This document shows positions 3,281 to 39,760 of a stretch of 64,000 bases of DNA, one piece after another. Position 1 is the stretch's first letter. The number at the start of each line of letters is the position of its first letter. Position numbers and translations under genes: made by a program. Below the pieces are notes generated by a model. That model did not search any database and was not told the DNA's origin. It was given only the letters and a program-made list of their open reading frames with translations. The stretch comes from an uncultured Clostridia bacterium (GTDB taxonomy: Bacteria > Bacillota > Clostridia > TANB77 > CAG-508): the NCBI GenBank assembly GCA_947631915.1, contig CANRNC010000005.1, positions 23,789 to 87,788 of the forward strand. The letters are read 5' to 3'.

Positions 3281-3296
3281 AGAAGGGAGAAATATA

Positions 3297-11768: not shown

Positions 11769-11897
11769 GTGGAGGAAGTTATATTCGAGGACTATAATAT
11801 TAGATTTAATGAAAATGATATAAAGAATGCAGATAAAAATACTTTAGAGAAATGTAAAAAAAAGCTAGAAGAAACTTTATTAAAATTAAATAATTAA
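11769..11897 (+). CDS. Possible small ORF (42 aa, GTG start), not in ORF track
   Basis: RBS AAAGGTGA 6 nt upstream of GTG; VEEVIFEDYNIRFNENDIKNADKNTLEKCKKKLEETLLKLNN*; stop is immediately followed by RBS of next gene. Confidence 0.2.
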   Translation: MEEVIFEDYNIRFNENDIKNADKNTLEKCKKKLEETLLKLNN

Positions 11898-11914
11898 ATG
11901 AAGGAGAACAAGAG

Positions 11915-22180: not shown

Positions 22181-23221
22181 ATGAACAAAAAATCAATAGC
22201 AATAATATTTGGAGGTGTAAGTCCAGAATATGATGTATCACTAGAATCAGCATATAGTGTTATTACAAATATAGATAAAGAAAAATATGATATAATTCTA
22301 ATTGGTATTAGTAAATCAGGAGATTGGTTTAAATATGATGGAGATATAATTAATATTAAGAATAATACTTGGCAAGAAAATGGTAAATGTGCTAAAGTAG
22401 TAATTTCAACTAATATGAGTGATAAAGGAATAATCGAATTAGAGAATAATTTAAATATCATAAAAGTAGATGCTATTTTTCCAGTATTACATGGTTCAAA
22501 TGGAGAAGATGGAACTGTTCAAGGAATAGTACAATTATCAGGAATACCATTAATAGGTTGTGATGTACTTTCATCTAGTTTATGCATGAATAAATATTTA
22601 TCACACAAATTGGTAGAAAGCTATGGTATAAAAGTAGCTAAAAGCATAGTTGTAAATAATAATACAAGTAAAGATGAAATAAATATGAAATTAGAAGAAT
22701 TAGTATATCCTTTATTTGTAAAACCAATGAGAGCGGGATCTTCTTTTGGCATTACAAAAGTAGAAAATAAAGATCAAATAGATGAAGCTATTAAAGAAGC
22801 ATTAAAATATGATACAGAAATAATCATAGAAGAAAATGTTGATGGAATAGAAATAGGGTGTGCCATTTTGGGAAATGATGAATTAACAGTTGGAGAAATA
22901 GATGAAATAGAATTGAGTGAAGGATTTTTCGATTATACTGAAAAATACACATTGAAAACCTCAAAAATACATGTACCAGCCAGAATAGATAGAAAAACTT
23001 CTAAAAAAGCAAAAGAAACAGCAAAAAAAATATATAGGATTTTAAATTGTAGAGATTTTGCAAGAGTAGATATGTTTTTAACTCCAGGAGGAGATATTTA
23101 TTTTAATGAAATCAATACAATACCAGGATTTACTTCTCATAGTAGATATCCTAGTATGATGAAACAGATAGGAATTACGTTTGATAAATTAATAGATAAG
23201 TTAATAAGTTTGGAAATATAA
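22181..23221 (+). CDS. ddl: D-alanine--D-alanine ligase
   Basis: ATP-grasp Ddl pattern; omega-loop EKY consistent with D-Ala-D-Ala specificity (inference). Confidence 0.85.
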   Translation: MNKKSIAIIFGGVSPEYDVSLESAYSVITNIDKEKYDIILIGISKSGDWFKYDGDIINIKNNTWQENGKCAKVVISTNMSDKGIIELENNLNIIKVDAIFPVLHGSNGEDGTVQGIVQLSGIPLIGCDVLSSSLCMNKYLSHKLVESYGIKVAKSIVVNNNTSKDEINMKLEELVYPLFVKPMRAGSSFGITKVENKDQIDEAIKEALKYDTEIIIEENVDGIEIGCAILGNDELTVGEIDEIELSEGFFDYTEKYTLKTSKIHVPARIDRKTSKKAKETAKKIYRILNCRDFARVDMFLTPGGDIYFNEINTIPGFTSHSRYPSMMKQIGITFDKLIDKLISLEI

Positions 23222-23242
23222 TTTTATAAGAAGGTAATATTA

Positions 23243-24370
23243 ATGGAAAAACAACTTATAATGCAACATAGAGCTTGGGTAGAAATAGATTTAGATAATT
23301 TGAAAAATAATATAGAACAAATAAAAAGTGTTATCCCTAAAAAATGTAAAATTATGGCGATTGTTAAAGCAAATGCTTATGGACATGGAATGGTAGAGAT
23401 ATCAACCAAGTTAAATGAAATTGGCATACAAGATTTTGCTGTAGCTACATTGTCAGAAGGAATAACATTAAGAGAGAATAATATTAAAGGAAATATATTA
23501 ATATTAGGCTATACACCTTTAGAAGATATAAAATATGTAGAAAAATATGATTTGATACAAACTATAGTAGATTATGAATATGCAAAAGCAATAGAAGAAC
23601 TTAAATTAGATAAAAAACTTAAAGTACATATAAAAATAAATACAGGGATGAATAGAATAGGAGAATGTTACAAGAATTTAGATGATATAAAGAAAATTTA
23701 TGAAATGAAAAATTTAGAGATATTGGGGACATATAGTCATCTATGTGTAGCAGATAGTTTAGAACCTAAAGATGTAGAATTTACAAATAATCAAATCAAT
23801 AATTTTTTTAGTTGTATAGATAAAATAAAAGAATCTGGACATTATGTAGGAAAAATACATATTCAATCTAGTTATGGAATATTGAATTACTCTAATGTAG
23901 AATGTGATTTTGTACGTCCGGGTATTATTATGTATGGAGCATATAATGAATGTCAAACAAAAGTAAAAATTAATATAAGACCTGTATTATCTTTAAAATC
24001 AATAATAACAAGCGTTAAGCAAATACAAAAGGGAGAAACTGTAAGTTATGGAAGAACTTTTATGGCAAATGAAAACAAAAAAATTGCTGCAGTTTCTATA
24101 GGATATGGCGACGGATATCCAAGGAATTTAAGCAATAAAAATGTTAAGGTATTTGTAAATGGAGAGTATGCAGAAATAATTGGTAGAATCTGTATGGATC
24201 AACTAATGATAGATGTTACAAATATTAAAAATGTTAATCCAGGAGATGTAGTAGAACTTATAGGAGAACAAATACCTGTAGAAAGTGTTGCAAGTAAGGC
24301 AGATACAATTACAAACGAACTATTATGTAGATTAGGAGATAGATTAGGAAGAATCGCAAAATCTGAATAG
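23243..24370 (+). CDS. alr: Alanine racemase
   Basis: VKANAYGHG PLP-lysine motif; cytoplasmic, no membrane domain. Confidence 0.88.
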   Translation: MEKQLIMQHRAWVEIDLDNLKNNIEQIKSVIPKKCKIMAIVKANAYGHGMVEISTKLNEIGIQDFAVATLSEGITLRENNIKGNILILGYTPLEDIKYVEKYDLIQTIVDYEYAKAIEELKLDKKLKVHIKINTGMNRIGECYKNLDDIKKIYEMKNLEILGTYSHLCVADSLEPKDVEFTNNQINNFFSCIDKIKESGHYVGKIHIQSSYGILNYSNVECDFVRPGIIMYGAYNECQTKVKINIRPVLSLKSIITSVKQIQKGETVSYGRTFMANENKKIAAVSIGYGDGYPRNLSNKNVKVFVNGEYAEIIGRICMDQLMIDVTNIKNVNPGDVVELIGEQIPVESVASKADTITNELLCRLGDRLGRIAKSE

Positions 24371-24374
24371 AAAA

Positions 24375-26420
24375 ATGGAGGAAATAAGTTTGGGGAAAGA
24401 AGATAATATATTAGGAACTGAAAAAATAGGAAAATTAATTGCAAAGTTTTCAATACCATGTATCATATCGCTATTGGTAAATTCATTATATAATATAGTA
24501 GATCAAATATTTATTGGTTGGGGAGTAGGTTATTTAGGAAATGGAGCTACTAATGTAGTGTTTCCATTAACTATGATTTGTCTAGCATTTGCATTAATGC
24601 TAGGTGATGGTTCATCTGCTTATTTAAGTTTAAAGTTAGGTGAAAAGAAAAAAGATGAAGCTGCAAAAGGAGTAGGAAATGGAATAATAGTTTCAGTTAT
24701 TATAGCAATAATTTTTTGTGTTTTTACATTAACATTTTTACCACAATTATTAAATGTATTTGGTTGTACAGATGCTTTAAGAGATTATGCTATTGGATAT
24801 GGAAGAATTATTGCAATTGGATTACCATTTATGATGATAGGAACTACTTTGAATTCAATAATTAGAGCTGATGGAAGTCCAAGATATTCAATGACTTCAA
24901 TGGTAGCAGGTGCAATTTTAAACATTATACTAGATCCTATTTTTATATTTGTATTAAAAATGGGAGTAGAAGGAGCAGCTATTGCTACAATATTAAGTCA
25001 ATTCCTTACTTTTGCACTTAATATAATATATATAAGAAAATTCAAATCAATAACTTTGAGTAAAGAGAATTTTAAAATTAAGTTTAGTATATTAAAAAGA
25101 GTAGCAACTTTAGGAATAAGTAGTTTTGTAACACAAATGAGCTTTGTATTTGTTGTAGCAACTGAAAACAATTTACTTGCAAAATACGGTTTAGAGTCTA
25201 AATATGGTTCTGAAATACCTATAACAGTATTAGGAATTGTTATGAAAATTAGTCAAATTCTAAACAGTATTATAATAGGAATTGCAGCAGGTTCACAACC
25301 AATTTTTGGATATAACTATGGTGCAAGAAAATTTGAAAGAGTAAAAGAAACTTTAAAAATAGTTTTAGGATTGAGTGTTGTAATTAGTACAATTGCATTC
25401 ATTTTATTCCAAGCAATACCAGATAAGTTAATTTCTATATTTGGTAGTGGTGATGAACTTTATATGGATTTTGCATGTCTAGCATTTAAGACATATCTAT
25501 TACTATGTATTTGTAATGGTATACAAATACCTGCAGGAATTTTCTTCCAGGCAATTGGAAAGAGTATAAAAAGTGTTATCTTATCATTATCAAGACAAAT
25601 TGTATTTTTAATACCATCAATGATAATATTGAGTGGTATCTTTGGAATAATGGGAGTATTATATTCTGGACCAGTAGCTGATGGAATGGCATTTATTCTT
25701 GCAACAACTTTATTAATATTAGAAGTAAAAAATCTAAATAAGGAAACAATGAAGAGCAATGCATTAGACGATGATACAAGTACTGATAATAAATTGAGTA
25801 AACATATTGTAATTACAGTATCAAGAGAATATGGATCTGGTGGAAGATATGTTGGAAGATTAATTGCTGATAAATTGGGAATTAAACTATATGATAAAGA
25901 ATTAATAAAAAAGGTATCTAATGAAACAGGACTATCAGAGGAATACATAGAAAGTAATGAGCAAAAGAGAGAAGCATTAGAGAACTTAAATAATGGATAT
26001 TATTTTGGATTAAATTATTCAGATGAACTATTTATCAAGGAATCTGAAATTATTAGAGAGATAGCTGAAAAAGAATCTTGTGTTATAATAGGTAGATGTG
26101 CGGATTTTATTTTAAAAGATAAAGAAAATGTTGTAAAGGTATTTATATATAGCAATATGGAAGATAAAATAAAAAGAGTAACAGACATTTATGGAATAAA
26201 AAAGGAGGATGCAAAAAAAGAAATAAATAGAGTTAATAAGTTAAGAGCAAACCATTATAAACATTATACAGAAAGAGAATGGAGCGATAGTGAAAACTAT
26301 GATATAACAATAAATAGTGCGACATTAGGAGTAGAAAAAACAGCAGATTTAATTTGCAAGATGGTTTTAGAAGAACTAGAGAAAATCGATATACAGAAAA
26401 CACCTATTGAAAATAATTAA
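24375..26420 (+). CDS. Fusion protein: MATE/MOP-family transporter (N, ~460 aa) + cytidylate-kinase-like P-loop domain (C, ~210 aa)
   Basis: 12-TM MATE-like N-terminal region; C-terminal HIVITVSREYGSGGRYVGRLIADKLGIKLYDKELI… matches the cytidylate kinase-like family (PF13189-type) motif ISREYGSGG. Confidence 0.7.
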   Translation: MEEISLGKEDNILGTEKIGKLIAKFSIPCIISLLVNSLYNIVDQIFIGWGVGYLGNGATNVVFPLTMICLAFALMLGDGSSAYLSLKLGEKKKDEAAKGVGNGIIVSVIIAIIFCVFTLTFLPQLLNVFGCTDALRDYAIGYGRIIAIGLPFMMIGTTLNSIIRADGSPRYSMTSMVAGAILNIILDPIFIFVLKMGVEGAAIATILSQFLTFALNIIYIRKFKSITLSKENFKIKFSILKRVATLGISSFVTQMSFVFVVATENNLLAKYGLESKYGSEIPITVLGIVMKISQILNSIIIGIAAGSQPIFGYNYGARKFERVKETLKIVLGLSVVISTIAFILFQAIPDKLISIFGSGDELYMDFACLAFKTYLLLCICNGIQIPAGIFFQAIGKSIKSVILSLSRQIVFLIPSMIILSGIFGIMGVLYSGPVADGMAFILATTLLILEVKNLNKETMKSNALDDDTSTDNKLSKHIVITVSREYGSGGRYVGRLIADKLGIKLYDKELIKKVSNETGLSEEYIESNEQKREALENLNNGYYFGLNYSDELFIKESEIIREIAEKESCVIIGRCADFILKDKENVVKVFIYSNMEDKIKRVTDIYGIKKEDAKKEINRVNKLRANHYKHYTEREWSDSENYDITINSATLGVEKTADLICKMVLEELEKIDIQKTPIENN

Positions 26421-26499
26421 ACTGACTACTCAGTCTAATAATATTTTCGCTTCTTTGTGATATAAATAAATTAAAAATAAATATATAGTTGAGGTAAAT

Positions 26500-28225
26500 A
26501 TGGAAAGTAAAAAAATATTTGAAGCCAAAGAATTTAAAAATATGAAAGAGATAATTTACGAATCAGCAAAGAAGCATAATGAAAGAATAGCATTTGTAAT
26601 TAAGCATCAAGAAAACAAAAATATAAGTTATGAAGATATAACTTATAAACAATTGTTAGAAGATATTAATAGATTTGGCACTAGTTTATATGAAATGGGA
26701 CTTAAAGGTAAAAGAATAGCTATAATAGGTAGAAATAGGTATGAATGGGTATTAGCACATTTTTCAAATCTATTAGGAGGAATTGTTTCAGTACCACTAG
26801 ATAAAGATTTACAATATGAAGAACTCGAAAATTCATTAATTAGAAGCAATGCAGAATGTATAGTTTTTGACGAGAAGTTACTTGAAAGAATAGAAGAAAT
26901 CAAAGAAAAAGGTAATACACAATTAAAAGAATATATTTGTATGGCAGATATAGAAGGCTTTACATCTGTAAATGAACTAGTAAATAAAGGTGAAAAATTA
27001 TTAAAGGGACGGTAAAAAGGATTACGTAAATGCTCAAATAGATGAAAATGCAATGAATATATTATTATTTACTTCTGGAACTACATCAAAATCAAAAGCA
27101 GTAATGCTATCACATAAAAATATAGCATCTAATGTATATGCATTACAATGTGTAGAGGATATTAGGGATACAGATACAAATATAGCTTTTTTACCTTTTC
27201 ATCATATCTTTGGATCAACTTGCATGGCATTAATGTTAGCACAGGGAGTTAAAACAGTATTTCCTGATGGTTTAAGATATATTAAACAGAACTTAAATGA
27301 ATATAAAGTAACAATATTTGTGGGAGTTCCTGTTTTGACCGAAGCTATATATAAAACAATAATGAAGGAAATTGAAAAACAAGGCAAGACAAAATTAATA
27401 AAGTTTGCATTAAAAGTAAGTAATATTCTATTAAAATTACATATTGATATTAGAAGAAAATTATTTAAACAAGTTCTTGAAGCTTTAGGTGGAGAATTAA
27501 GATTTGTTATAACAGGAGGGGCACCTGCAGATCCATTAGGGCTTAAAGGATTTAATGACTTTGGAATAAAAACTGCCCAAGGTTATGGATTAACAGAAAC
27601 AGCTCCAGTAATATGTGCTGAAACTGAAAAACATAAAAAAAACGGTTCAGTAGGAATTCCAATGATAAATGACACTATTGAAATTGTAAATAAAGATGAA
27701 AATGGTATAGGAGAGATAAGAGTAAAAGGACCTAATGTGATGTTAGGATATTATGAAATGCCTGAAGAAACATCAAAAGTGTTAAAAGATGGATGGTTCT
27801 ATACAGGAGATTTAGGGTATTTTGATGAAGAAGGATTCTTGTTTATAACAGGAAGAAACAAAAATATGATAGTTCTAAAAAATGGTAAAAAAGTATTTCC
27901 AGAGGAACTTGAAACTTTGGTAAATAGATTAGAACTAGTTGAGGAATCTATGGTATTTGGTTTACCCGACGAACAAGATAAAAATGATATTAAATTATCA
28001 GTAAAAATTGTATATAATAAAGAAGTAGTAAAAGAAAAATATGAAGGAAAAACTGAAGAAGAATTATATGACATTATATGGAATGAAATTAAGGAGATAA
28101 ATAAAACATTTCCAAGATATAAACATATACAAAATATGATTCTAACTAGCGAAGAACTAATAAAGACAACCACCAAGAAAGTAAAAAGACAAGAGGAAAT
28201 GAAATTAATTTTAAGTAATAAATAA
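26500..28225 (+). pseudogene. Long-chain acyl-CoA synthetase-like AMP ligase paralog 1, +1 frameshift in G3 run 27006-27008
   Basis: ORF 26500-27015 (…KGEKLLKGR*) and ORF from 27005 frame (DGKKDYVNAQIDENAMNILLFTSGTTSKSK…) align collinearly with the intact paralog at 29403 (…RGKKLIENGNREFLDAKIDPNEMSIMLFTSGTTSKSK); deleting one G restores the frame. Confidence 0.7.
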
Positions 28226-28318
28226 AAATTCCAACTATTTTGAAAACAAAAAGCATCTAAATGATGAAAATATAAAACATTATTTAGATGTTTATTTATA
28301 ATAAAAGGAGGAATTAAT

Positions 28319-29278
28319 ATGAAAGAAAAATTTAAAATAATAGCATTAATTATAATAATTGTGTTAGTTTTAGGATTACTAGGTTATGAAATTATAAAAG
28401 AAAGAAAAATTTATAATGAGCCTGCTGATGATGAAGAGGTGATTATAGAACCAATATATAAAGATTTAGAATCATTACCATTAGATTATGATTTCGCTCA
28501 AATGGTTGAAGATGATTGCTATATAGTAACAAATTCTGGAGTAGTTTATAATCTAAAGAATCTAAATAACTTTATAAAAAATGTTGAAAATAATGTAAGA
28601 GATCAAGTAAGAATAATACAATATACTATAGAAGGACAACCAATAATAAAAGATTTAGAGTATACACAGGATAAATTCATTCTGAAGAATGACTATCGAA
28701 GGGATGGATTTTCAGCTAATGAAGATAGAATAATTGAGACAACTGAATATGATGCATCTTTATATGAATTACAGAAAAGTGAGGATACAAGTACTATAAA
28801 TAAAAATGTTACTCTTCGCAATATCTATTTAAAAGAAAAAGATACAGAAAATAGTATTTATATTTGCCAGTTAGCAGAGATAAAAGAGACGAGTGAAGAA
28901 GAGTTCAAAATAGAATTTGAAAGAAATGATACAGGAAAAGTAAAGATATTAGATGCTTCAGAGACAGACAAATATGATTATAACATTTATACATATAAAG
29001 GAGAGGTAAATATTATAATTAATGAAGAGAAAATGTCTTTAAGAGATGCTTTACTTAACGATAAGATAACAGTTGACCGAATATTAGAAAAAGCTGAAAA
29101 AGATTTTAATGAAAGAACTATATGGAGAGGAGTATATTCAGATGGTGGAAGTAAAAATTATATCTATGATGACTATTCAATATTGAAATGCAATAGAATT
29201 ATGAGCACTCCTGATGAGCGTGATAGAGATTTATATATTGGAATACCATCAATGTACATTGGAGAAGTTACAAAATAA
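28319..29278 (+). CDS. Hypothetical membrane-anchored extracytoplasmic protein
   Basis: 319 aa, N-terminal signal-anchor, no recognised family; RBS AAAGGAGGAA. Confidence 0.5.
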   Translation: MKEKFKIIALIIIIVLVLGLLGYEIIKERKIYNEPADDEEVIIEPIYKDLESLPLDYDFAQMVEDDCYIVTNSGVVYNLKNLNNFIKNVENNVRDQVRIIQYTIEGQPIIKDLEYTQDKFILKNDYRRDGFSANEDRIIETTEYDASLYELQKSEDTSTINKNVTLRNIYLKEKDTENSIYICQLAEIKETSEEEFKIEFERNDTGKVKILDASETDKYDYNIYTYKGEVNIIINEEKMSLRDALLNDKITVDRILEKAEKDFNERTIWRGVYSDGGSKNYIYDDYSILKCNRIMSTPDERDRDLYIGIPSMYIGEVTK

Positions 29279-29402
29279 TAAATGTAGGGGGGACTTATGT
29301 CCACCCTATTTTATTTTTTAAACTGACCACCCAGTTCAATATATATCTATAAAATGTAATGATATAAATAATACTGTTAATAAATATATAAAGGATGAAA
29401 AG

Positions 29403-31121
29403 ATGAATAAGAAATTATATGAATATATTGAAATTACAGATTTAAAAGATATGTTAAATAAAACAAAAGAGATATATAAAGATAAACCAGCATATAAAAT
29501 AAGAATTGGAGAAGGTAAGTATAAGATATTTACACACGGCGAAGTAAGAAATATGGTAAATAGTTTAGGAACTGCATTAATAAATTTAGGGCTAAAAGGA
29601 AAAAGAATAGCAGTTATCGGAGAAAACAGATATGAATGGGAAATAGCATATTTATCAATAGTATGTGGAACAGGAATAGTAGTACCTCTAGATAAATCTT
29701 TACCAGAAAACGAATTACAAGACTTAATAGAAAGGTCAGAAATTGAAGCAATATTCTATTCTAACAAATATGCAGAAGCTATCGAAAGAATTAAATATAG
29801 TGAAAAAAACAAATTAAAGCATTTAATAGCAATGGATTTGCCAGTACACTCTGAAGGAGTATATTCAGAGCAAGAATTAATTGAAAGAGGAAAAAAATTA
29901 ATAGAAAATGGTAATAGAGAATTTTTAGATGCTAAAATAGATCCAAATGAAATGAGTATAATGCTATTTACTTCAGGAACAACATCTAAATCTAAAGTAG
30001 TAGCATTATCACACAAAAATATATGTTCAAACTTGATGGATATAGCAAGTATTTTAGATGTTACTTCAGAAGATACGTTGCTTTCAGTTTTGCCGATACA
30101 TCATGTATTTGAATGTACAGTGGGATTTCTGTTTTCATTATATAAAGGGGCACAAACTGTATTTTGTGATGGTATAAGGCATGTAGTAGAAAATTTAAAT
30201 GAATATCAAGTTTCGGTAATGGCATGTGTACCAGCTATATATGAAAGAATTTTTGCAATAATTAGAAAAAAATTAGAAAAGCAAGGTAAAGTAGAAAAAA
30301 TATTAGAAGATGAAGAAAAATATAGAAATGCTTCTATGGACGAAAAAAAAGAAATTTTTAAAGAAATACATGATATGCTTGGAGGAAAAGTAAAACTGTT
30401 CATAAGTGGAGCGGCATCATTAGATACAAAAATAGAAGAAAAATATAGATTATTAGGATTAAATTTAGTTCAAGGTTATGGACTAACAGAAACCTCTCCG
30501 GTTGTGGGGATAGGAAGTAATAAATATAATAAAATAGGCTCAATAGGAAAAGCAGTTCCGAGTGTTCAAGTAAAATTATCAGATGTAAATAGTGAAGGAA
30601 TAGGAGAATTACTTGTAAAAGGACCAAGTATAATGCTTGGATATTATGAAAATGAAGAAGCTACAAAAGAAGTGATGGAAAATGAATGGTTTCATACAGG
30701 AGATTTAGCTAGAATAGACGAGGAAGGATATATATTTATCTGTGGAAGGAAGAAAAGTGTAATAGTTCTAAAAAATGGAAAAAATATTTTTCCAGAAGAA
30801 ATGGAAAATTTAGTAAACAAAATAGAAGGTGTAACAGAATCTTTTATTTTTGGAAAGCAACAGACAGAGGATAAAGATAACATTAAAATAAATGTAAAGA
30901 TAGTATTTGATAGAGAAATAGTAAAAGAAGTTTATAAGGTTGAAACAGATGAAGAAATATATAGTGCCCTATCAAAAGAAATAAAAGAAATAAATAAAAC
31001 AATGCCAAGATATAAATCAATTAGAGGAATGATATTAACAGAAGAACCATTAATAAAAACTACAACAAATAAAATAAAAAGGCAGGAAAATTTAGATGCA
31101 ATTACAAAACTTAAAAACTAG
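29403..31121 (+). CDS. Long-chain acyl-CoA synthetase-like AMP ligase paralog 2 (intact)
   Basis: AMP-binding motif LFTSGTTSKSK, GYGLTETSP, C-terminal KTTTNKIKR; 572 aa. Confidence 0.8.
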   Translation: MNKKLYEYIEITDLKDMLNKTKEIYKDKPAYKIRIGEGKYKIFTHGEVRNMVNSLGTALINLGLKGKRIAVIGENRYEWEIAYLSIVCGTGIVVPLDKSLPENELQDLIERSEIEAIFYSNKYAEAIERIKYSEKNKLKHLIAMDLPVHSEGVYSEQELIERGKKLIENGNREFLDAKIDPNEMSIMLFTSGTTSKSKVVALSHKNICSNLMDIASILDVTSEDTLLSVLPIHHVFECTVGFLFSLYKGAQTVFCDGIRHVVENLNEYQVSVMACVPAIYERIFAIIRKKLEKQGKVEKILEDEEKYRNASMDEKKEIFKEIHDMLGGKVKLFISGAASLDTKIEEKYRLLGLNLVQGYGLTETSPVVGIGSNKYNKIGSIGKAVPSVQVKLSDVNSEGIGELLVKGPSIMLGYYENEEATKEVMENEWFHTGDLARIDEEGYIFICGRKKSVIVLKNGKNIFPEEMENLVNKIEGVTESFIFGKQQTEDKDNIKINVKIVFDREIVKEVYKVETDEEIYSALSKEIKEINKTMPRYKSIRGMILTEEPLIKTTTNKIKRQENLDAITKLKN

Positions 31122-31674
31122 TTTTCTAGGTAAAACTATTATTTATTATGAAAAAATTGATTCAACTCAAGATGAGATATGGAGAAAAATACATAATAAA
31201 ACTATAATAAATGGAACTGTAGTTATAGCAAATATTCAGACGAGAGGAAAAGGAACTCATGGAAGAGTATGGCATACCGATGATAATGGAAATATAGCAT
31301 TTTCGTTTTTTGTAGAAATGAACTATAACATAAAGGTTTTAAATGGGATAACTATAAAAATTGCAAAAATCATAGTAGATATTTTTAATAATAAATATGG
31401 AATAAAATTGGAAATAAAAGAACCAAATGATATAGTATTCAAAGGAAAAAAGTTAGGAGGAATTCTAACAGAGACTGTTTTAAAAGGTGAGATTGTTAAA
31501 TATTTAGTAGTAGGAATTGGAATAAACACCAATAAAAAAATTTTTACAAAAGATATAGAAAATATTGCAACATCAATAAAAAAAGAATTTAACATAGAAA
31601 TAAACACTCAAGAGTTCATATCAGAATTTTGTAATAAGTTTGAAGAGGAATTATTAAAAAGGATGTGTAATTAA
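31096..31674 (+). CDS. birA: Biotin--[acetyl-CoA-carboxylase] ligase, group I (no DNA-binding domain)
   Basis: QTRGKGTHGRVWH (GRGRxGRxW-type) and KGKKLGGIL; overlaps upstream gene by 26 nt. Confidence 0.8.
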   Translation: MQLQNLKTSFLGKTIIYYEKIDSTQDEIWRKIHNKTIINGTVVIANIQTRGKGTHGRVWHTDDNGNIAFSFFVEMNYNIKVLNGITIKIAKIIVDIFNNKYGIKLEIKEPNDIVFKGKKLGGILTETVLKGEIVKYLVVGIGINTNKKIFTKDIENIATSIKKEFNIEINTQEFISEFCNKFEEELLKRMCN

Positions 31675-31675
31675 A

Positions 31676-32611
31676 ATGAAAATAGGATTTTTGTTTCCTG
31701 GACAGGGAGCACAGAGTGTAGGAATGGGAAAGGATATATATGAAGAATATGATAAGGCAAGAGTTATATATGATAAAGTAAAAGAAATAACAGGTATAGA
31801 CATAGCGAGAATATCTTTTGATGGACCAGAAGAAGTATTAAATGAAACCAAATATACACAACTTGCAATACTTACAATGAGTTTAGCAATTTTAAATATT
31901 CTTAAGCAAAGTAATATCAGACCAGATATATCTGCAGGTTTAAGTCTAGGAGAATATACGGCATTAATTAATAGCAATGTATTTTCATTTGAAGAAGGAG
32001 TTAAACTTGTTCAAAAAAGAGGAGAATATATGCAAAATCTTCTACCTAGCGGAGAATGGCAAATGGCAGCGATTATTGGAATGACGGAGGAACAAGTAGA
32101 AGAAGTATGCAGAAAAGTAAATACAGGATTCGTAGTGCCTGCGAATTACAACTGTACAGGACAGATTGCAATTTCAGGAGAAAAAGAAGCTGTATTAGAA
32201 GCAGAGAAAATTGCAAAAGCAATGGGAGCTAAAAAGGTTATAGTTTTAAAAACATCAGGACCATTTCATACTGAAAAATTAACAGAAAGCTCAAAGGCTT
32301 TAAGAAAAGAACTTGAAAAAGTTACTATAAATAAATTTGATACTAGAGTAATCAAAAATTTAGATGGAGAGCTTTATAGAGATGATGATGATATAAGAGA
32401 TATCTTATCAAAGCATATCATAAATCCAGTAAGATTTTCTAAAACAATAAAAACAATGTTAAATGAAGGTATTGACACATTTATAGAAATAGGACCGGGA
32501 AAAACATTATCAGGATTTGTAAAAAGAATGCAAGAAGATAAAAATATAACAATATTAAATATTAATAATGTAGAAAATTTAAAGAGTACAATAGATTTAA
32601 TTATAAAATAG
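31676..32611 (+). CDS. fabD: Malonyl CoA-ACP transacylase
   Basis: FPGQGAQ and GLSLGEY active-site motifs. Confidence 0.92.
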   Translation: MKIGFLFPGQGAQSVGMGKDIYEEYDKARVIYDKVKEITGIDIARISFDGPEEVLNETKYTQLAILTMSLAILNILKQSNIRPDISAGLSLGEYTALINSNVFSFEEGVKLVQKRGEYMQNLLPSGEWQMAAIIGMTEEQVEEVCRKVNTGFVVPANYNCTGQIAISGEKEAVLEAEKIAKAMGAKKVIVLKTSGPFHTEKLTESSKALRKELEKVTINKFDTRVIKNLDGELYRDDDDIRDILSKHIINPVRFSKTIKTMLNEGIDTFIEIGPGKTLSGFVKRMQEDKNITILNINNVENLKSTIDLIIK

Positions 32612-32657
32612 TAGAATAATGTATATCTATAAAATACAAATAAGGAGAAGATGAAAT

Positions 32658-33392
32658 ATGAATAAAATTGCATTTATAACTGGAGGTACACGTGGAATAG
32701 GAAAACAAATAGCAATAACACTTGCAAAAAATGGATATGACATTGCAGTTAATTACAGAACAGAAAATGAGGCTTTAATAAATACAAAAAAAGAAATAGA
32801 AGAAGAAAAAGTTCAATGTTTGGCAGTACAAGGAGATGTTTCTAATTTTGAAGATTGTGAAAGAATGATAAAGGAAATTATAAATAAATTCGAAAAAATT
32901 GATGTATTAGTAAATAATGCAGGAATTACTAAAGATATGCTATTAATGAGAATGAAAAAAGAAGATTTCCAAGAAGTAATTGATATAAATTTAGTTGGAA
33001 CATTTAATGTAACCAAAAATGTTATTCAATATATGATGAAAGCACGTTCAGGTAGAATAATAAATTTATCATCTATAGTAGGAATTGCAGGTAATGCTGG
33101 ACAAACAAATTATTCTGCTTCAAAAGCAGGAATAATTGGATTTACAAAAAGTTTGGCAAAAGAAGTAGCATCAAGAAATATATTAGTAAATGCAATAGCA
33201 CCAGGATTTATAGAAACAGATATGACAAACATATTAAAAGATGAAGTTAAGGAAGAAATTGCAAAATCAATACCTTTAAAAAGAATGGGAAAAGTAGAAG
33301 ATGTTGCAAATTTAGTAAAATTCTTATCATCTGAAGAAAGTTCATATATTACTGGTCAAGTCATCAATGTAGATGGTGGAATGGTAATGTAG
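32658..33392 (+). CDS. fabG: 3-oxoacyl-ACP reductase
   Basis: SDR TGGTRGIG, YSASKAG. Confidence 0.9.
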   Translation: MNKIAFITGGTRGIGKQIAITLAKNGYDIAVNYRTENEALINTKKEIEEEKVQCLAVQGDVSNFEDCERMIKEIINKFEKIDVLVNNAGITKDMLLMRMKKEDFQEVIDINLVGTFNVTKNVIQYMMKARSGRIINLSSIVGIAGNAGQTNYSASKAGIIGFTKSLAKEVASRNILVNAIAPGFIETDMTNILKDEVKEEIAKSIPLKRMGKVEDVANLVKFLSSEESSYITGQVINVDGGMVM

Positions 33393-33435
33393 TATTTATA
33401 TTATACATAAAATAATAAGAAGAAAGGAAAGCAAT

Positions 33436-34674
33436 ATGGAAAAGAGAGTTGTAATTACAGGTTTAGGAGCGATAACTCCAATAGGAAAAAATGTAGCAGA
33501 AACATGGGAAGGAATAGAGAATAAAACTTGTGGAATTGATAAGATTTCTTTATTTGACACTTCGAACTTTAAAACGACATTAGCAGCAGAAGTTAAGAAT
33601 TATAACCCATTAGATTATTTCGAACCAAAGCAAGCAAAAAGATTTGATAGATCATCTCAATTTGCAATTATTTCTGCAAGAGAAGCAGTAAAAGATAGTG
33701 GAATAGCAAAAGAAAATACGGACTATGATAGAGTGGGGATTTTTGTGAGTTCTGGAATTGGAGGATTATCAACTATTCAAGAACAATGCGAGATAAATTA
33801 TATAAAAGGTAATAATAGAGTTTCTCCAATGTTTATACCCATGGCAATAGCAAATATGCCTGCAGGTAATATTGCTATAGAATTTGGATTTAAAGGAGAA
33901 TCAGTATCAATAGTAACGGCATGTGCTTCTTCAACACATGCTATAGGAGAGGCATATAAAACTATAAAATATGGATATGAAGATGTAATTATAGCAGGTG
34001 GAACAGAAGCCTCAATATGTCCAATTGGTATTGCAGGCTTTGAAAATATGAAGGCTTTACATACAGGAAATGACAAAACAAGAGCAAGTATCCCTTTTGA
34101 TAAAGAAAGAAGCGGATTTGTAATGGGAGAAGGATCAGGAATGGTTATACTTGAGGAATTAGAACATGCAAAAGCAAGAGGAGCTAAAATTTATGCAGAG
34201 ATTATAGGATTTGGCTCTACTACAGATGCATATCATATAACTTCACCAGATCCAGAAGGTAATGCAGGAGCAAAAGCCATGATTAGAGCAATAGAAGATG
34301 CAAAAATTAAACCAGAAAATATTGACTATATAAATGCTCATGGAACTTCTACACATCTGAATGATTCCACAGAAACATTAGCTATCAAAAAGGCACTAGG
34401 AGATGCAAGCAAAAAAGTAATGATAAGTTCAACTAAAGGAAATATAGGGCATTTACTAGGAGCAGCAGGAGGAGTTGAAGCAGTGTTAAGTGTCAAAGCA
34501 ATTGAAAATCAGCTTGCACCAGCAACAATAAATTATAGAGAAAAAGATGAAGAATGTGATTTGGATATTATACCTAATGGGCCAAGAAAATCAAAAATAA
34601 ATATAGTAATGTCAAATTCGTTGGGATTTGGAGGACATAATGCTTGTATTATAATAAAGAAATTTGAAAATTAG
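33436..34674 (+). CDS. fabF: 3-oxoacyl-ACP synthase II
   Basis: KAS active-site triad. Confidence 0.92.
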   Translation: MEKRVVITGLGAITPIGKNVAETWEGIENKTCGIDKISLFDTSNFKTTLAAEVKNYNPLDYFEPKQAKRFDRSSQFAIISAREAVKDSGIAKENTDYDRVGIFVSSGIGGLSTIQEQCEINYIKGNNRVSPMFIPMAIANMPAGNIAIEFGFKGESVSIVTACASSTHAIGEAYKTIKYGYEDVIIAGGTEASICPIGIAGFENMKALHTGNDKTRASIPFDKERSGFVMGEGSGMVILEELEHAKARGAKIYAEIIGFGSTTDAYHITSPDPEGNAGAKAMIRAIEDAKIKPENIDYINAHGTSTHLNDSTETLAIKKALGDASKKVMISSTKGNIGHLLGAAGGVEAVLSVKAIENQLAPATINYREKDEECDLDIIPNGPRKSKINIVMSNSLGFGGHNACIIIKKFEN

Positions 34675-34687
34675 GAGGGAATTATAA

Positions 34688-35122
34688 ATGGAATATGAAA
34701 AAATAGAACAATTAATTGATCATGTAGGAAATTCTAAATTAACATCGATTGATATAAATTTTCCGGACGGTACTAGAATTAGTATGAAAAAAGATCCAAA
34801 ACAAGAAAATGTTGTTGTAAGTCAAGAAGTAAAAAAAGATGTATCAACAGAAACTAAAGTAGTCGAATTACAGGACAGACAAGATGTTGCAAATGTGGTA
34901 AAATCACCTATGGTAGGGACATTTTATACAAAGTCTTCTCCAACGTCAGAACCATATGTTGAAATAGGAAAAACAGTAAAAAAAGGAGATATACTTTGTA
35001 TAATAGAGGCAATGAAATTAATGAATGAAATCGAATCAGAATTTTCAGGAGAAATAGTAGAAATTTTAGTAAAAAATGGAGATACAGTAGAATACGGAAC
35101 GCCTTTATTTAGAATCAAATAG
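34688..35122 (+). CDS. accB: Biotin carboxyl carrier protein of ACC
   Basis: EAMKLMNEI biotinyl-lysine motif. Confidence 0.9.
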
Positions 35123-35138
35123 AGAAGGGAAAAAAGAA

Positions 35139-35561
35139 ATGTTAAATAGAGAAGAAATAAAAAATATTATTCCACAAAGAGAGCCATTTCTGATGATTGA
35201 CGAAGTAGAAGAATATATATCAGGAGAAAGCGCAACAGCATATAAAAACGTAGATGAAAATGAATGGTATTTTAAAGGTCATTTTCCAGGAAATCCAATA
35301 ATGCCAGGTGTATTAATAGTGGAAGCACTTGCACAAACAGGAGCAGTTGCAATTCTATCAATGGAAGAAAATAAAGGAAAAAACGCTTTATTTGGCGGAA
35401 TTGATAAAGTGAAATTTAAAAAAATGGTAGTACCAGGAGATAGATTAAAATTGGAAGTTAAAATTATAAAACGAAAAGGACTAATAGGAGTGGGTGAAGC
35501 AATAGCAACGGTCAATGGAGTTTTAGTAGCAAAAGGAGAATTAACTTTTGCAATAGTTTAA
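35139..35561 (+). CDS. fabZ: 3-hydroxyacyl-ACP dehydratase
   Basis: [20 protein letters not shown] hot-dog motif. Confidence 0.92.
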
Positions 35562-35631
35562 AAAACAATCGTCAATAATAATTCTTTTTTAAACTAGAGT
35601 AACTTTTCTAGAAAGGAGATGCAAGATTCCA

Positions 35632-36996
35632 ATGAATAAAATATTAATTGCAAACAGAGGAGAGATTGCAGTTAGAATAATTAGAGCTTGTAAAGAAATG
35701 AATATTAAAACTGTTGCAGTTTATTCGGAGGTGGACAAAGATGCATTACATACAAGATTAGCAGATGAGGCAATTTGTATTGGACCGGCAGTAGCAACAA
35801 AGAGTTATTTAAACATAAAAAATATTATAGAAGCTGCATATTTAACAGGAAGCGATAGTATTCACCCTGGGTTTGGATTTTTATCTGAAAATGCAGAATT
35901 CGCTAAAATATGTGAAGAGTCTAATATAAAATTTATAGGACCTAGTTCAAAGGTAATAAATTTATTAGGCAACAAATCTAACAGTAAAGAAATTATGAAA
36001 GAAGCAGGAGTTCCAGTTATTCCTGGTTCAGAAGGAAGCGTAAAAGGATTAAACGATGCTATCACTATTGCAGAACAAATAGGATATCCAGTTATGTTAA
36101 AAGCAGCAGCAGGTGGTGGAGGAAAAGGAATAAGAATAGTAAATACTAGTAGTGAACTAGAAACAAATTATAATATAGTGAAGCAAGAAGCCAAAAATTC
36201 CTTTAATGATGATGAAATTTACATTGAAAAATATATAAAGAATCCTAGACATGTTGAAATTCAGATATTAGCTGATGAACATGGCAATGTTGTCCATTTA
36301 GGTGAGAGAGATTGTTCAATTCAAAGAAGACATCAAAAAATAATTGAGGAGACCCCATCTACAATTATAGATGATAAATTAAGGAATAAAATGGGAAATA
36401 CAGCAATAAAAGTAGCGAAAGTTGCAGGATATACAAGTTGTGGAACAGTAGAGTTTTTAGTCGATGATGATAAGAACTTCTATTTTATGGAGATGAATAC
36501 AAGAATTCAAGTTGAACATCCAATAACTGAAATGAGAACAGGAATAGATATTGTAAAAGAACAAATAAGAATTGCTGCAGGAGAGGAATTAAAATTTAAA
36601 CAAAAAGAAATAGAATTTAAAGGACATTCTATAGAATGTAGAATAAATGCAGAAAATCCTATGAAAAATTTTATGCCTTGTCCAGGAAAAATAAATGAAA
36701 TAAATCTTCCAGGAGGTAATGGTGTAAGGGTAGATACAGCAATATATAATGGATATACAATACCAGCTAACTACGATTCAATGATTGCAAAAATCATAAC
36801 ACATGGAGGAACCAGAAATGAAGCAATAGCAAAAATGAAAAGAGCATTACAAGAGTTAGTAATAGATGGTGTTGAAACTAATATAGATTTCATATTTGAT
36901 ATAATAAGAAACCCAGATTTTATTAGAGGTAATTTTAGTACTTCATTTATAGAAGATAAAATATTGAATAGACCAACCATTAAGAAAGAGGATTAG
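35632..36996 (+). CDS. accC: Biotin carboxylase
   Basis: ATP-grasp biotin carboxylase motifs. Confidence 0.93.
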
Positions 36997-36998
36997 AG

Positions 36999-37859
36999 AT
37001 GATTGTTGATAAAATAAAAAAACAAGAAACAAAGAATATTAAAAACAGAAAATCTAATATTGATATTCCGATAGGTAAATGGATTAAATGTGATAGTTGT
37101 AAAGAAATCATATATAAAGAAGCAGTTAGGAAAAATTTAAATATTTGCCCTAATTGTGGTCATTATTTTAGAATGCATATAGGAAAAAGGTTAGAACTTA
37201 TAATAGATGAAGGTACTTATAAAAGATTTGATATAAATATAGATACTACTAATCCTCTACAACTAGAAGACTATCCTAAAAAATTAAAAAGTTTAAGAGA
37301 AAAAACCGGACTTGAAGAAGCAGTAAGTTGTGGTACAGGAAATATAAATGGAGAGAAAGTAGTAATTTGTGTAATGGATAGCGCTTTTTTAATGGGAAGT
37401 ATGGGAATTGTGGTAGGAGAAAAGATTACATATAGTATAGAGCAAGCAGTTGAGCAAAAACTGCCACTTATAATATTTTCTGTTTCAGGCGGTGCTAGAA
37501 TGCAAGAAGGTATTATATCATTAATGCAAATGGCAAAAACAACAGCAGCACTCACAAAATTAGATGAAGCAGGACTATTATATATATCAGTATTAACAGA
37601 TCCGACATATGGAGGAGTTACAGCATCTTTTGCAAGTTTAGGAGATATAATTCTTGCAGAGCCAAAAGCTATGATAGGTTTTGCAGGACAAAGAGTTATA
37701 GAACAGACAATAGGAGAGTCATTACCAGAAGGTTTTCAAACCTCCGAATTTTTATTAGAGCATGGATTTATAGATAAAATAGTAGAAAGAAAAGACTTAA
37801 AAGAAACAATCTATAAATTGATAAAGCTAAATAAAGGAGGTGCGGTTAGTAGTGAATAA
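36999..37859 (+). CDS. accD: ACC carboxyltransferase beta
   Basis: N-terminal Zn ribbon CDSC…CPNC, CoA carboxylase beta domain. Confidence 0.9.
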
Positions 37860-38661
37860 GAAAATTACCGCTTGGGAAAAAGTTGAAATAGCAAGAGATC
37901 CTAAAAGAAAAACAGCTTTAGATTATATAGAAGAAATATTTGATGATTTTATAGAATTACATGGAGATAGAAATTTTAAGGATGATAAGGCGATAGTTTG
38001 TGGACTAGCAAGCATTGGAAAACAAAATTTTACAATAGTAGCAGAGCAAAAAGGGCGAACTACAAAAGAAAATATAGAGAGAAACTTTGGAATGCCTAAT
38101 CCAGAAAGTTATAGAAAAGCAATAAGGTTTATGAAACAAGCAGAAAAATTTGGTAGACCAGTAATTACTTTTATAGATACAAAGGGAGCATATCCAGGAA
38201 TAGGTGCAGAAGAAAGAGGTCAAGGAGAAGCTATTGCAAAATCTATGTTTGAAATGGCAAAGTTAAAAGTACCAATAATTGCTATAGTAATAGGTGAAGG
38301 TTCAAGTGGAGGGGCTTTAGCAATAGGAGTAGCAAATAAGATATTTATGTTAGAGAATGCAATTTATTCAATACTTTCACCAGAAGGTTATAGTAGCATT
38401 TTATGGAAGGATTCTAGCAGATTTAAAGAGGCTGCGGAAAAAATGAGATTAACTGCAAAAGATTTATATGATTTGAAGGTAATTGATAAAATAATAAAAG
38501 AGCCAAGTGGAGATAGTGAAGAGAGTTTTAAAAAAATAGTTAATAATTTAAAGAAAGAAATAAAAAATACAATAGAAGAATTAAAGCAATTAGATAAAGA
38601 AAGTATAGTCCAAAAGAGATATGAAAAGTTTAGAAGCATGGGAGAATTTATGAGTTTATAG
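37852..38661 (+). CDS. accA: ACC carboxyltransferase alpha
   Basis: AccA pattern; likely GTG start at 37852 after RBS AAAGGAGG (ORF-track 37840 too close to RBS). Confidence 0.85.
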
Positions 38662-38672
38662 GAGTGGTAAGA

Positions 38673-39446
38673 ATGTTATTAAAAGATAAGAAAATATTAA
38701 TTATGGGCATAAGAAATAAGTGGAGTATTGCATATGGAATTGCAAAATCTGCTTATGAAAACGGAGCAAAATTAATTTTTACATATATGGGAGAAGAAAA
38801 TAAAGATAAAATAGAAGAATTAATTAATGAATTTGAGGGAAGTAAAGCGTATGTATTAGATGGTGCTTCTGAAGATGAATTAGTTAAAAAAACTTTTTTA
38901 AAAATTAAAGAAGAAAATGGAAAGATTGACGGGCTAGTTCATGCCATAGCACATGCTAATACAGAAGATTTACACAATGATTTTATATTTACAAGTAAAG
39001 AAGGATATGCTCATGCAGTAGATGTAAGCGCTTATTCATTTGTACTTTGTGCAAGAATGGCAAAAGAGTTAGATATGTTAAATGAAAATGCTAATTTAGT
39101 AACTTTAACATATCATGGATCAACAAAAGTGCTAGAAGGATACAATGTTATGGGAGTGGCAAAAGCCGCATTAGAAGCAAGTGTTAGATATTTAGCTGAA
39201 AATTTAGGTAAAGATAGTATAAGGGTAAATGCTATTTCAGCTGGACCTATAAAAACATTATCTGCAAAAGGAATAAAGGACTTTTCATCAATATTAACTG
39301 TAGTGGAGGAAAAATCACCATTACATAGAAATGTTACAACAACACAAGTAGGAAATGTTGCAACATTTCTATTAAGTGATATGTCGGAAGCTATAACAGG
39401 TCAAGTTATATATGCTGATAGTGGATATAATATAATGGGAGTTTAA
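38673..39446 (+). CDS. fabI: Enoyl-ACP reductase (NADH), FabI type
   Basis: GIRNKWSIAYGIAK, Y-x6-K (YNVMGVAK); ATG 38673 after RBS AGGAGTGG. Confidence 0.82.
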   Translation: MLLKDKKILIMGIRNKWSIAYGIAKSAYENGAKLIFTYMGEENKDKIEELINEFEGSKAYVLDGASEDELVKKTFLKIKEENGKIDGLVHAIAHANTEDLHNDFIFTSKEGYAHAVDVSAYSFVLCARMAKELDMLNENANLVTLTYHGSTKVLEGYNVMGVAKAALEASVRYLAENLGKDSIRVNAISAGPIKTLSAKGIKDFSSILTVVEEKSPLHRNVTTTQVGNVATFLLSDMSEAITGQVIYADSGYNIMGV

Positions 39447-39473
39447 TAATATAAAGGGAGGAATGAAAGTAAA

Positions 39474-39716
39474 ATGAATAAAGAAGAAATTTTAGAAAAG
39501 TTAAAAAATATTATTGTGGATCAATTAGGTATTGATAAGGAAAGTGTAACAGAAGAGTCTACATTTGTAGATGATTTAGAAGCGGATTCTCTAGATATTG
39601 TTGAATTAATAATGAATATAGAAGAAGAATTTGAGATTGAAATCCCTGATGCAGATGCAGAAAAGATTGTAACTGTAGGAGATGTAGTAAAATATATAGA
39701 AGAAAATAAACAATAA
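39474..39716 (+). CDS. acpP: Acyl carrier protein
   Basis: [13 protein letters not shown] phosphopantetheine site. Confidence 0.92.
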
Positions 39717-39723
39717 TTTGTAA

Positions 39724-39760
39724 AAAGGAAGTAATTAACTTGATAATTACTTCCTTTTAT
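39724..39760 (+). terminator. Rho-independent terminator ending the fab/acc operon
   Basis: Perfect 14-bp stem AAAGGAAGTAATTA/TAATTACTTCCTTT, loop ACTTGA, then TTAT. Confidence 0.7.

Follow-up and report, generated by a model that had tools for sequence, protein, structure and literature searches.

Gene content and order of the locus

A stretch of 64 kb from an uncultured Clostridia bacterium (contig CANRNC010000005.1, positions 23,789 to 87,788; hereafter the window) carries a cluster of genes for type II fatty acid synthesis (FASII) and acetyl-CoA carboxylase (ACC). The first gene of this cluster, designated lig2, encodes an AMP-binding ligase of the ANL superfamily. It is followed by birA, which encodes a minimal biotin-protein ligase, and by fabD-fabG-fabF-accB-fabZ-accC-accD-accA-fabI-acpP (Table 1). 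The locus combines a complete ACC, an elongation set for FASII (fabD, fabG, fabF, fabZ, fabI, and acpP) and the biotin ligase under a promoter whose first gene is lig2. This is how the regulon for fatty acid synthesis is built in a lineage of gut Clostridia that is uncultured, spore-forming, and low in G+C, and the arrangement points to an unusual feeding of free fatty acids into membrane synthesis.

Genes were identified by open reading frame (ORF) calling and by NCBIfam and Pfam profile scans, with the curated NCBIfam cut-offs as thresholds. All fab, acc, acpP, and birA genes passed these cut-offs except fabI, for which the 12 best NCBIfam matches are all FabI models, each under its equivalog cut-off, with InhA and FabL models scoring lower. 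According to these scans, FabD, FabG, FabZ, FabI, FabF, and acyl carrier protein (ACP) make the elongation set of the block complete, and FabF is its sole condensing enzyme. The genes from lig2 to acpP are tightly packed, with intergenic gaps ranging from -26 to 70 nt. Both the order of the genes and their coordinates, as proposed in the first-pass annotation, were found to be correct, as was the placing of acpP at the end of the block.

The same annotation had recognized a group I BirA-like ligase near the ACC genes, and this protein is indeed a genuine minimal group I biotin ligase, which scores above the TIGR00121 cut-off and has no helix-turn-helix domain. It begins at the catalytic domain and also lacks a C-terminal SH3-like domain (profile positions 169-235 are unmatched). 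It carries biotin-loop, KEPNDI, and GIGIN motifs, as judged against the motifs of E. coli BirA. The straightforward reading is that it would biotinylate AccB.

Table 1. Features of the FASII/ACC locus and of the region immediately upstream, in window coordinates.
Feature	Position	Strand	Evidence
Operator copy 1, 22-bp palindrome TTAAACTGACTACTCAGTCTAA before lig1	26417..26438	+	position weight matrix 32.7 bits
Extended -10 box TGATATAAA, lig1 promoter	26458..26466	+	19 nt after palindrome
lig1, AMP-ligase paralogue, pseudogene	26500..28225	+	two ORFs, 171 aa + 390 aa; ~45% identical to lig2
Terminator-like hairpin after lig1	28251..28293	+	RNAfold -22.0 kcal/mol for 28226-28318, shuffles -7.1
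DUF4362 protein, 319 aa	28319..29278	+	Pfam PF14275, 61 bits
Intrinsic terminator after DUF4362 gene	29284..29320	+	G+C-rich hairpin 29284-29309 + T-run; -15.3 kcal/mol, shuffles -6.4
Operator copy 2, TTAAACTGACCACCCAGTTCAA before lig2	29318..29339	+	position weight matrix 25.8 bits
Extended -10 box TGATATAAA, lig2 to acpP promoter	29360..29368	+	sequence; pattern conserved
lig2, 572-aa ANL (AMP-binding) ligase, first gene of FASII/ACC operon	29403..31121	+	Pfam AMP-binding PF00501, 233 bits; AMP-binding_C_3 PF23562
birA, minimal biotin-protein ligase, 192 aa	31096..31674	+	TIGR00121 138.8 bits, cut-off 83.1; overlaps lig2 stop by 26 nt
fabD, malonyl-CoA:ACP transacylase	31676..32611	+	TIGR00128 305.5 bits, cut-off 260.9
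fabG, 3-oxoacyl-ACP reductase	32658..33392	+	TIGR01830 352.5 bits, cut-off 297.75
fabF, beta-ketoacyl-ACP synthase II	33436..34674	+	TIGR03150 606.5 bits, cut-off 493.75
accB, biotin carboxyl carrier protein	34688..35122	+	TIGR00531 135.2 bits, cut-off 115.2; EAMKL biotinylation motif
fabZ, 3-hydroxyacyl-ACP dehydratase	35139..35561	+	NF000582 169.3 bits, cut-off 113
accC, biotin carboxylase	35632..36996	+	NF004085 753.7 bits, cut-off 723
accD, carboxyltransferase beta subunit	36999..37859	+	TIGR00515 380 bits, cut-off 317.45
accA, carboxyltransferase alpha subunit	37840..38661	+	NF004344 418.5 bits, cut-off 357
fabI-type enoyl-ACP reductase	38664..39446	+	best FabI model 319 bits, cut-off 370
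acpP, acyl carrier protein	39474..39716	+	NF002148 117.4 bits, cut-off 71; DSL phosphopantetheine site
AT-rich hairpin ending the operon, 15-bp stem	39723..39758	.	-16.6 kcal/mol, shuffles -5.6

Conservation in related genomes

Scanning a single genome for each species yielded 80 loci of ~20 kb each (L001-L080), whose ligases are 71-89% identical to lig2. All of them come from metagenome-assembled genomes (MAGs) of uncultured gut bacteria, named 'Clostridia bacterium' or 'Clostridium sp. CAG:245/440/575', with humans, mice, rabbits, and ruminants as hosts; we take these MAGs to be placed by GTDB in the order TANB77. About 75 of the 80 loci keep the order lig2-birA-fabD-fabG-fabF-accB-fabZ-accC-accD-accA-fabI(-acpP). 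The lig2 stop and the birA start overlap in 65 of 74 loci, and in 49 of these the overlap measures exactly 26 nt. Because the gene content before the ligase changes from one subclade to another, with synteny breaking at that point, the ligase marks the 5' end of the conserved block. Three orthologues (L002, L027, and L065) are located apart from the fab genes, amid polC, ileS, or glycosidase genes. Taken as a whole, these data support the view that the ligase is an integral, conserved, and co-regulated part of the FASII/ACC unit.

Some variation was seen within the acc genes of the relatives. Two consecutive ORFs take the place of accD in L024, L026, L029, L030, L032, L033, L035, L036, L050, and L059, of accA in L006, L020, L022, L023, L034, L038, L046, L062, L066, and L076, and of accC in L004, L006, L034, L038, L046, and L076. 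These are either real gene splits, for example with a separate zinc-ribbon part of AccD, or systematic frameshift errors of the MAGs. In addition, fabI is followed in L024, L026, L032, L033, L035, L036, and L059 by an extra FabG-like short-chain dehydrogenase/reductase gene and by a weakly FabK-like gene of the nitronate monooxygenase family (133 bits, cut-off 453), a pair that the window does not have.

A shared operator and promoter

A 22-bp palindrome with the consensus TTATACTGAC-CT-CTCAGTCTAA recurs upstream of the ligase genes; its perfect form is TTAGACTGAC-CT-GTCAGTCTAA. This operator is newly recognized here and was not reported in the first-pass annotation. A weight matrix was used to scan 1.54 Mb (the 80 loci and the window) with a threshold of at least 14 bits. 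It returned 84 sites, 82 of them outside the window, and each of the 84 lies directly before a ligase, birA, or fabD gene, as compared with 1-6 sites in shuffled sequence. Sites preceding birA (L004, L025) or fabD (L018) correspond to split operons. The distance from the end of the palindrome to the TG of the extended -10 box (TGATATAAA) is exactly 19 nt in 63 of 69 sites. A conserved AGACA that follows the palindrome forms, with the palindrome's last A, a -35-like AAGACA box with a 17-nt spacer; the operator thus abuts the -35 box and is centered near -45. The ligase and the FASII/ACC genes constitute a conserved regulon with a dedicated operator.

The operator is also kept by two of the three detached ligases (L027 and L065), which argues that they still belong to the same regulon, their operon having been split without FASII being necessarily lost. 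That these three genomes lost FASII and retained the ligase was considered as an explanation and set aside as unproven: two of the ligases retain the operator, other operons have been split with a duplication of theirs, and a relocation of the gene is no less likely. Two such duplications accompany insertions. In L018, an Rpn-family transposase gene (2739-3764) lies between birA and fabD, and in L004 an ORF of 118 aa (11819-12175) lies between lig2 and birA; in both cases the operator and promoter are duplicated downstream of the insertion.

A metagenome-wide scan for the exact pattern gave many chance matches from unrelated environments; on low-G+C gut contigs, the sites were found only at ligase or fab genes among the matches listed. 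Metagenomic organisms unrelated to the clade also have the palindrome, directly before a TetR gene and before an efflux pump of the RND type (L162 807-828, L187 1707-1728, L190 2158-2179). This is the typical behavior of a TetR operator, and the half-site may be recognized by a wider TetR subfamily. On the reverse strand of L137, a ligase 53% identical to lig2 has the operator and no adjoining fab genes; the genes after this ligase encode small membrane proteins and a thioesterase of the 4HBT/YbgC-like kind. Another palindromic repeat, AAACTGACAAAAGTGTCAGTTT, is found twice in tandem before an unrelated gene cluster (L043 5155-5172, L044 2907-2924, L053 2583-2600); it fits a loose regular expression and does not fit the operator matrix.

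A candidate TetR regulator

In 11 loci (for example L049, 3496-4071), a gene of the TetR family (~190 aa) immediately precedes the operator. A further example comes from a distant relative, L139, whose fab proteins are 50-70% identical to those of the window. In this locus the TetR gene (6272-6841, reverse strand) overlaps birA, and the pair is followed by the operator and by fabD-fabG-fabF-accB-fabZ-accC, with no ligase at the operator-fabD site. The coupling of birA to the TetR gene in this locus indicates that birA goes with the ACC/FASII operon rather than with the ligase. The best named relative of the TetR proteins is Bacillus FadR (NF053878, 73.4 bits for a cut-off of 200), followed at a distance by FasR (NF053731, 48 bits for a cut-off of 330), so that neither family score is reached.

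No copy of the TetR gene was found in the 64-kb window; because two operator copies are present, the regulator must nevertheless exist. It is fairly safe to propose that a FadR-like TetR protein binds the palindrome and co-regulates the ligase(s) together with FASII/ACC. The control would be either repression or a FasR-like activation, in response to a putative effector. The first-pass annotation had described the locus as devoid of a FapR or FabT regulator. Genes for FapR and for the MarR-type FabT are indeed absent from the window and from all 80 loci; the regulator gene that recurs beside the operator in relatives is of the TetR type.

lig1, the DUF4362 gene, and transcription units

Upstream of lig2 lies the second ligase gene, lig1, which consists of an N-terminal part (26500-27015) and a C-terminal part (27053-28225). 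Its frame is broken by an additional G within a GG run near 27007-27009, and deleting this G restores a frame that matches the intact orthologues. The same split into 171 and 390 aa occurs in two independently assembled samples, and lig1 is thus a real pseudogene in the population of the window. Only about 12 related loci have a lig1 orthologue immediately before lig2, and in these it is intact (572-577 aa). Lig1 is an old paralogue, whose sequences form a clade separate from lig2, and it has decayed in this genome. The earlier proposal that two ligases feed ACP is therefore overstated for this genome, lig1 being a reproducible pseudogene that is missing from most relatives.

The gene between the two ligases encodes a DUF4362 protein, which probably stands outside the lipid system. 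It is confined to the population of the window, where it was seen in another assembly as well (sample ERZ27249118), and is absent at that place in all other loci.

Terminators were sought by RNA folding against shuffles, a G+C-based scan having missed the AT-rich ones. The view of the block as a single operon with one strong terminator holds for the hairpin after acpP but not for the region as a whole, because hairpins also follow lig1 and the DUF4362 gene and there are two promoter modules. With three hairpins and two operator/promoter copies, lig1, the DUF4362 gene, and lig2 to acpP are separate transcription units.

The lig2 ligase and its relatives

Lig2 is a member of the ANL superfamily, as indicated by the motifs TSGTTSKSK, GYGLTETS, HTGD, and TTTNKIKR and by a Foldseek probability of 1.0 to many ANL structures. 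It scores under every NCBIfam equivalog cut-off: the best match overall is PRK06187 (255, cut-off 476), and the FadD scores are far from being reached (NF006523, 186 bits for a cut-off of 884; Staphylococcus FadD NF052269, 175 for 650). The lig2 family is large, with 7,237 clusters at 50% identity (E <= 1e-30). When a profile of the family was compared with the PDB, no close solved structure was found. The matches were MatB (146 bits), oxalyl-CoA ligase (140), FadD13 (131), ttLC-FACS (101), and the acyl-ACP synthetase AasS (8hsy/8jyl, 84.5). The earlier suggestion that the ligase is AasS-like does not hold by sequence, AasS scoring 84 bits as against 130-146 bits for CoA ligases. Assignment to AasS, FadD, MbcS, or MatB by sequence was rejected in each case, all being far under the family cut-offs and AasS falling below the CoA ligases.

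The AlphaFold model of lig2 has a pLDDT of 69 and was built from a shallow alignment (>=78% identity), and it was used for the fold class only. Its best fold neighbors are the fatty-acyl-CoA synthetases (FACS) FadD13 and ttLC-FACS. An analysis of the pocket was dropped, this pLDDT being too poor. Several motifs resemble those of long-chain enzymes: a FACS signature (W-F-H-T-G-D...G-R-K-K), together with features of the ACSL/COG1022 type, namely HHVFEC, a helical insertion of ~40 aa before LGGKVKL-ISGAA, RKK-x-I-x-L-x-x-G-K-x-I-x-P-E-E-x-E, and the C-terminal TTTNKIKR. Cyanobacterial and plant acyl-ACP synthetases have an ACSL-like architecture too. Lig2 probably activates free fatty acids.

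Close relatives outside the clade include two ligase-PP-binding-reductase fusions and one ligase-PP-binding fusion (P0240, P0250, and P0149). Such fusions indicate that enzymes of the lig2 subfamily acylate the thiols of carrier proteins. Seven stand-alone relatives (43-57% identity) lie amid housekeeping genes, none of them near genes of beta-oxidation or FASII. Genes for beta-oxidation (of the fadE/fadB/fadA type) were found in none of the 80 in-clade loci and in none of 7 out-of-clade contexts. One of the seven stand-alone relatives, in L211 (467-9743) and 45% identical to lig2, is divergent from the gene of a 2463-aa nonribosomal peptide synthetase that begins with a condensation (starter) domain, which hints at a role of this ligase in fatty-acyl loading for a lipopeptide.

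Genes absent from the locus

The window encodes none of fabH, plsX, fabK, fakAB, FapR, and FabT. The Fak system is the usual route for exogenous fatty acids in Gram-positive bacteria (Radka 2023, PMC10146087). FabH and PlsX were also searched by tblastn with E. coli queries in the window and the 1.54 Mb of clade loci, which cover ~1% of each genome, and neither was detected; FabD (81 matches) and AcpP (28 matches) served as positive controls. A FabH homologue was likewise missing from the regulon as sampled from metagenomes with the operator, among the matches listed. The absence of fabH, plsX, and fabK that had been noted earlier is thus confirmed within the window, and that of fabH, plsX, and fak extends to the ~20 kb around the locus in the 80 relatives.

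Proposed role of the ligase and competing explanations

In the reading that we favor, lig2 would adenylate free medium- or long-chain fatty acids from the gut and would pass the acyl group to the operon's own AcpP, at its phosphopantetheine thiol, in the manner of an acyl-ACP synthetase. Scavenged chains would then join the acyl-ACP pool formed by de novo synthesis, and this pool would be available for elongation by FabF, FabG, FabZ, and FabI, for use by PlsX, PlsY, and PlsC, and for sensing by the regulator, while BirA would keep AccB biotinylated. ACP is favored as the acceptor because of the acpP gene in the same operon, the carrier-domain fusions, the lack of acyl-CoA-consuming pathways in the contexts seen, and the use of acyl-ACP or acyl-phosphate in Firmicute phospholipid synthesis. 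Indeed, the PlsX, PlsY, and PlsC enzymes of Firmicutes use acyl-ACP or acyl-phosphate and not acyl-CoA, which would make acyl-ACP the useful product.

The identification of lig2 as an acyl-ACP synthetase is plausible, but we hold it tentatively, at slightly less than an even chance, and several points weigh against it. Lig2 scores lower to solved AasS than to many CoA ligases, its preference for a given chain length is suggested by motifs only, and the structure model is mediocre. The FASII link is lineage-specific, since the out-of-clade relatives stand alone. The nearest named relative of the TetR protein is the acyl-CoA-sensing Bacillus FadR, which would keep an acyl-CoA product in play. 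Finally, AasS, fatty acyl-AMP ligases, and acyl-CoA ligases are inseparable by sequence and assays are needed to tell them apart (PMC12086093), and the sequence of lig2 does not tell whether the acceptor is ACP or CoA.

The main rival explanation, which we consider unlikely, makes lig2 an acyl-CoA synthetase. The long-chain acyl-CoA formed would be mainly the effector of the FadR/FasR-like TetR protein, so that exogenous fatty acids would tune the expression of FASII/ACC, or the ligase would supply short acyl-CoA primers to a FabH encoded elsewhere, as does MbcS of S. aureus. Annotation pipelines label the family as long-chain acyl-CoA synthetases, the best neighbors of lig2 in sequence and fold are CoA ligases, and the TetR protein is most like the acyl-CoA-binding Bacillus FadR, and FasR. 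An operator centered at about -45 would also fit a FasR-like activator released by acyl-CoA, and in B. subtilis lcfA and fadR form one operon. However, neither beta-oxidation genes nor acyl-CoA acyltransferases occur in the 87 contexts, the fusions to carrier domains and the presence of acpP in the operon speak for ACP, and we know of no route by which long-chain acyl-CoA enters phospholipid in Firmicutes. The position of lig2 in the canonical fabH slot, before an otherwise canonical fabD to accA order, suggests a different role, in which genomes without fabH would use the ligase to charge ACP with short- or medium-chain acids abundant in the gut (acetate, butyrate, branched-chain acids) for elongation by FabF. 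The lack of a FabH homologue in 1.54 Mb of clade sequence and the status of FabF as the only condensing enzyme of the block agree with this role, and two paralogues could provide two primer specificities. We nonetheless regard it as quite improbable: the motifs and the fold neighbors point to long-chain substrates, fabH may lie in the ~99% of each genome beyond the loci, the operon of L139 begins at fabD with no ligase there, and FabF alone can initiate synthesis through decarboxylation of malonyl-ACP. The broader scheme, in which the whole clade is without FabH, the ligase primes ACP with short or medium acids from the environment, and a FadR-like TetR protein replaces FapR/FabT as the master regulator of FASII, is a long shot; if true, it would wire membrane lipid synthesis to the pool of fermentation acids in the gut.

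Two further explanations are very improbable. The ligase could activate a dicarboxylate, either malonate, as MatB does, or pimelate for biotin, which would account for its link to ACC and BirA. The malonyl-CoA synthetase MatB is the top PDB match by sequence, a malonyl-CoA synthase is the third NCBIfam match, and the ligase gene tightly overlaps birA. Yet the similarity to MatB is limited to the generic core (327-489; 198 for a cut-off of 558), lig2 has an additional helical insertion of the ACSL type and a different C-terminal domain (PF23562), and the coupling of birA to the TetR gene in L139 ties birA to the operon rather than to the ligase. No more credit can be given to a meaningless adjacency, in which a housekeeping ligase landed upstream of the fab operon by chance. 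This would agree with the stand-alone relatives outside the clade and with the three detached orthologues inside it, but not with a highly specific operator that persists after detachment and in split operons and that both paralogues carry, nor with the maintenance of the arrangement across at least 75 species.

Comparison with known systems

Firmicutes are thought to import exogenous fatty acids via the FakAB kinase and to regulate FASII by FapR or FabT. Their fab/acc clusters have the order fabT-fabH-acpP-fabK-fabD-fabG-fabF-accB-fabZ-accC-accD-accA in Enterococcus and Streptococcus, and fabH-fabK-fabD-fabG-fabF-accB-fabZ-accC-accD-accA in Clostridium acetobutylicum. The core from fabD to accA is identical at the present locus, on one strand and tightly packed. 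By contrast, ligase-birA replaces the 5' regulator-fabH-(acpP)-fabK segment, lig2 occupying the slot in which other Firmicutes have fabT/fapR-fabH, fabI and acpP are added at the 3' end, and a TetR-type operator is found instead of FabT (MarR) or FapR sites.

Like the acyl-ACP synthetases (V. harveyi AasS, the cyanobacterial and plant Aas, Chlamydia AasC, Neisseria AasN, and Alistipes Aas), lig2 belongs to the ANL enzymes and could channel free fatty acids into acyl-ACP, which FASII can elongate. By its motifs it appears to share an ACSL-like architecture with cyanobacterial Aas, whereas it has no specific similarity to AasS (84 bits). To our knowledge, these acyl-ACP synthetases are all Gram-negative or plastid, and none of them heads a FASII/ACC operon. 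Another likeness is to MbcS of S. aureus, a Firmicute ANL ligase that channels exogenous acids into FASII, as is proposed for lig2; the match between the two is weak and N-terminal (46 bits for a cut-off of 850). MbcS, a branched short-chain acyl-CoA synthetase, is encoded outside the fab operon and needs FabH.

On the regulatory side, B. subtilis FadR (YsiA) with lcfA, FasR of Corynebacterium and Mycobacterium, E. coli FabR, and Pseudomonas DesT are comparable as small TetR proteins encoded next to genes for a fatty acid ligase and/or for fatty acid synthesis, with a palindromic operator at the promoter. The TetR protein of the clade is not a member of the FadR family (73 bits for a cut-off of 200), and its operator sequence is different. 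Its putative target is FASII/ACC in Clostridia, as opposed to beta-oxidation for FadR and FAS-I for FasR.

Taken singly, FASII, ACC, biotin-protein ligases, ANL ligases, and TetR regulators of lipid metabolism are already known. What is new is the way in which a Firmicute combines them: a ligase stands instead of fabH at the start of a fab/acc operon, and fabI-acpP closes it. Also new are the TetR-type operator instead of FapR/FabT control and the conservation of the whole across a large uncultured gut lineage. Nothing relevant was found in the searchable literature on ligase-led fab operons, TetR regulators of FASII in Clostridia, or the lipid metabolism of TANB77. In this widespread lineage, with more than 80 species-level genomes of human, mouse, rabbit, and ruminant origin, an ANL ligase is tied to FASII/ACC by a TetR-type operator, and this operator and the candidate TetR protein make up a directly testable regulatory system. 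Should the product of lig2 be acyl-ACP, the locus would be a Gram-positive example of an AasS-type route. It would then bear on the use of dietary and host lipids and on MAG-based reconstruction of lipid metabolism, and also on whether FASII inhibitors directed at FabI (triclosan, afabicin-like compounds) spare or hit these bacteria.

Other genes of the window

The window has a G+C content of ~28% and a strong GC skew, with almost all genes on the + strand, and an Rfam scan detected no RNA elements in it. Its remaining genes are housekeeping genes, including the spoIIIA operon, groEL, proS, ddl with a racemase gene, tig-clpP-clpX, ileS, and polC, among others. At 22181-24370, a gene of the D-Ala-D-Ala ligase family is followed by a racemase gene that scores above the cut-off of the 'VanT-G catalytic subunit' serine racemase (524.8 bits, cut-off 460). 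The two may form a D-Ala-D-Ser (VanG-like) pair for cell-wall precursors; no vanR/S or vanXY genes are nearby, and the pair is kept in sister genomes. The next gene (24375-26420), directly upstream of operator copy 1, encodes a 681-aa MATE efflux transporter with a fused C-terminal cytidylate-kinase-like domain (PF13189), a fusion that is kept across the subclade.

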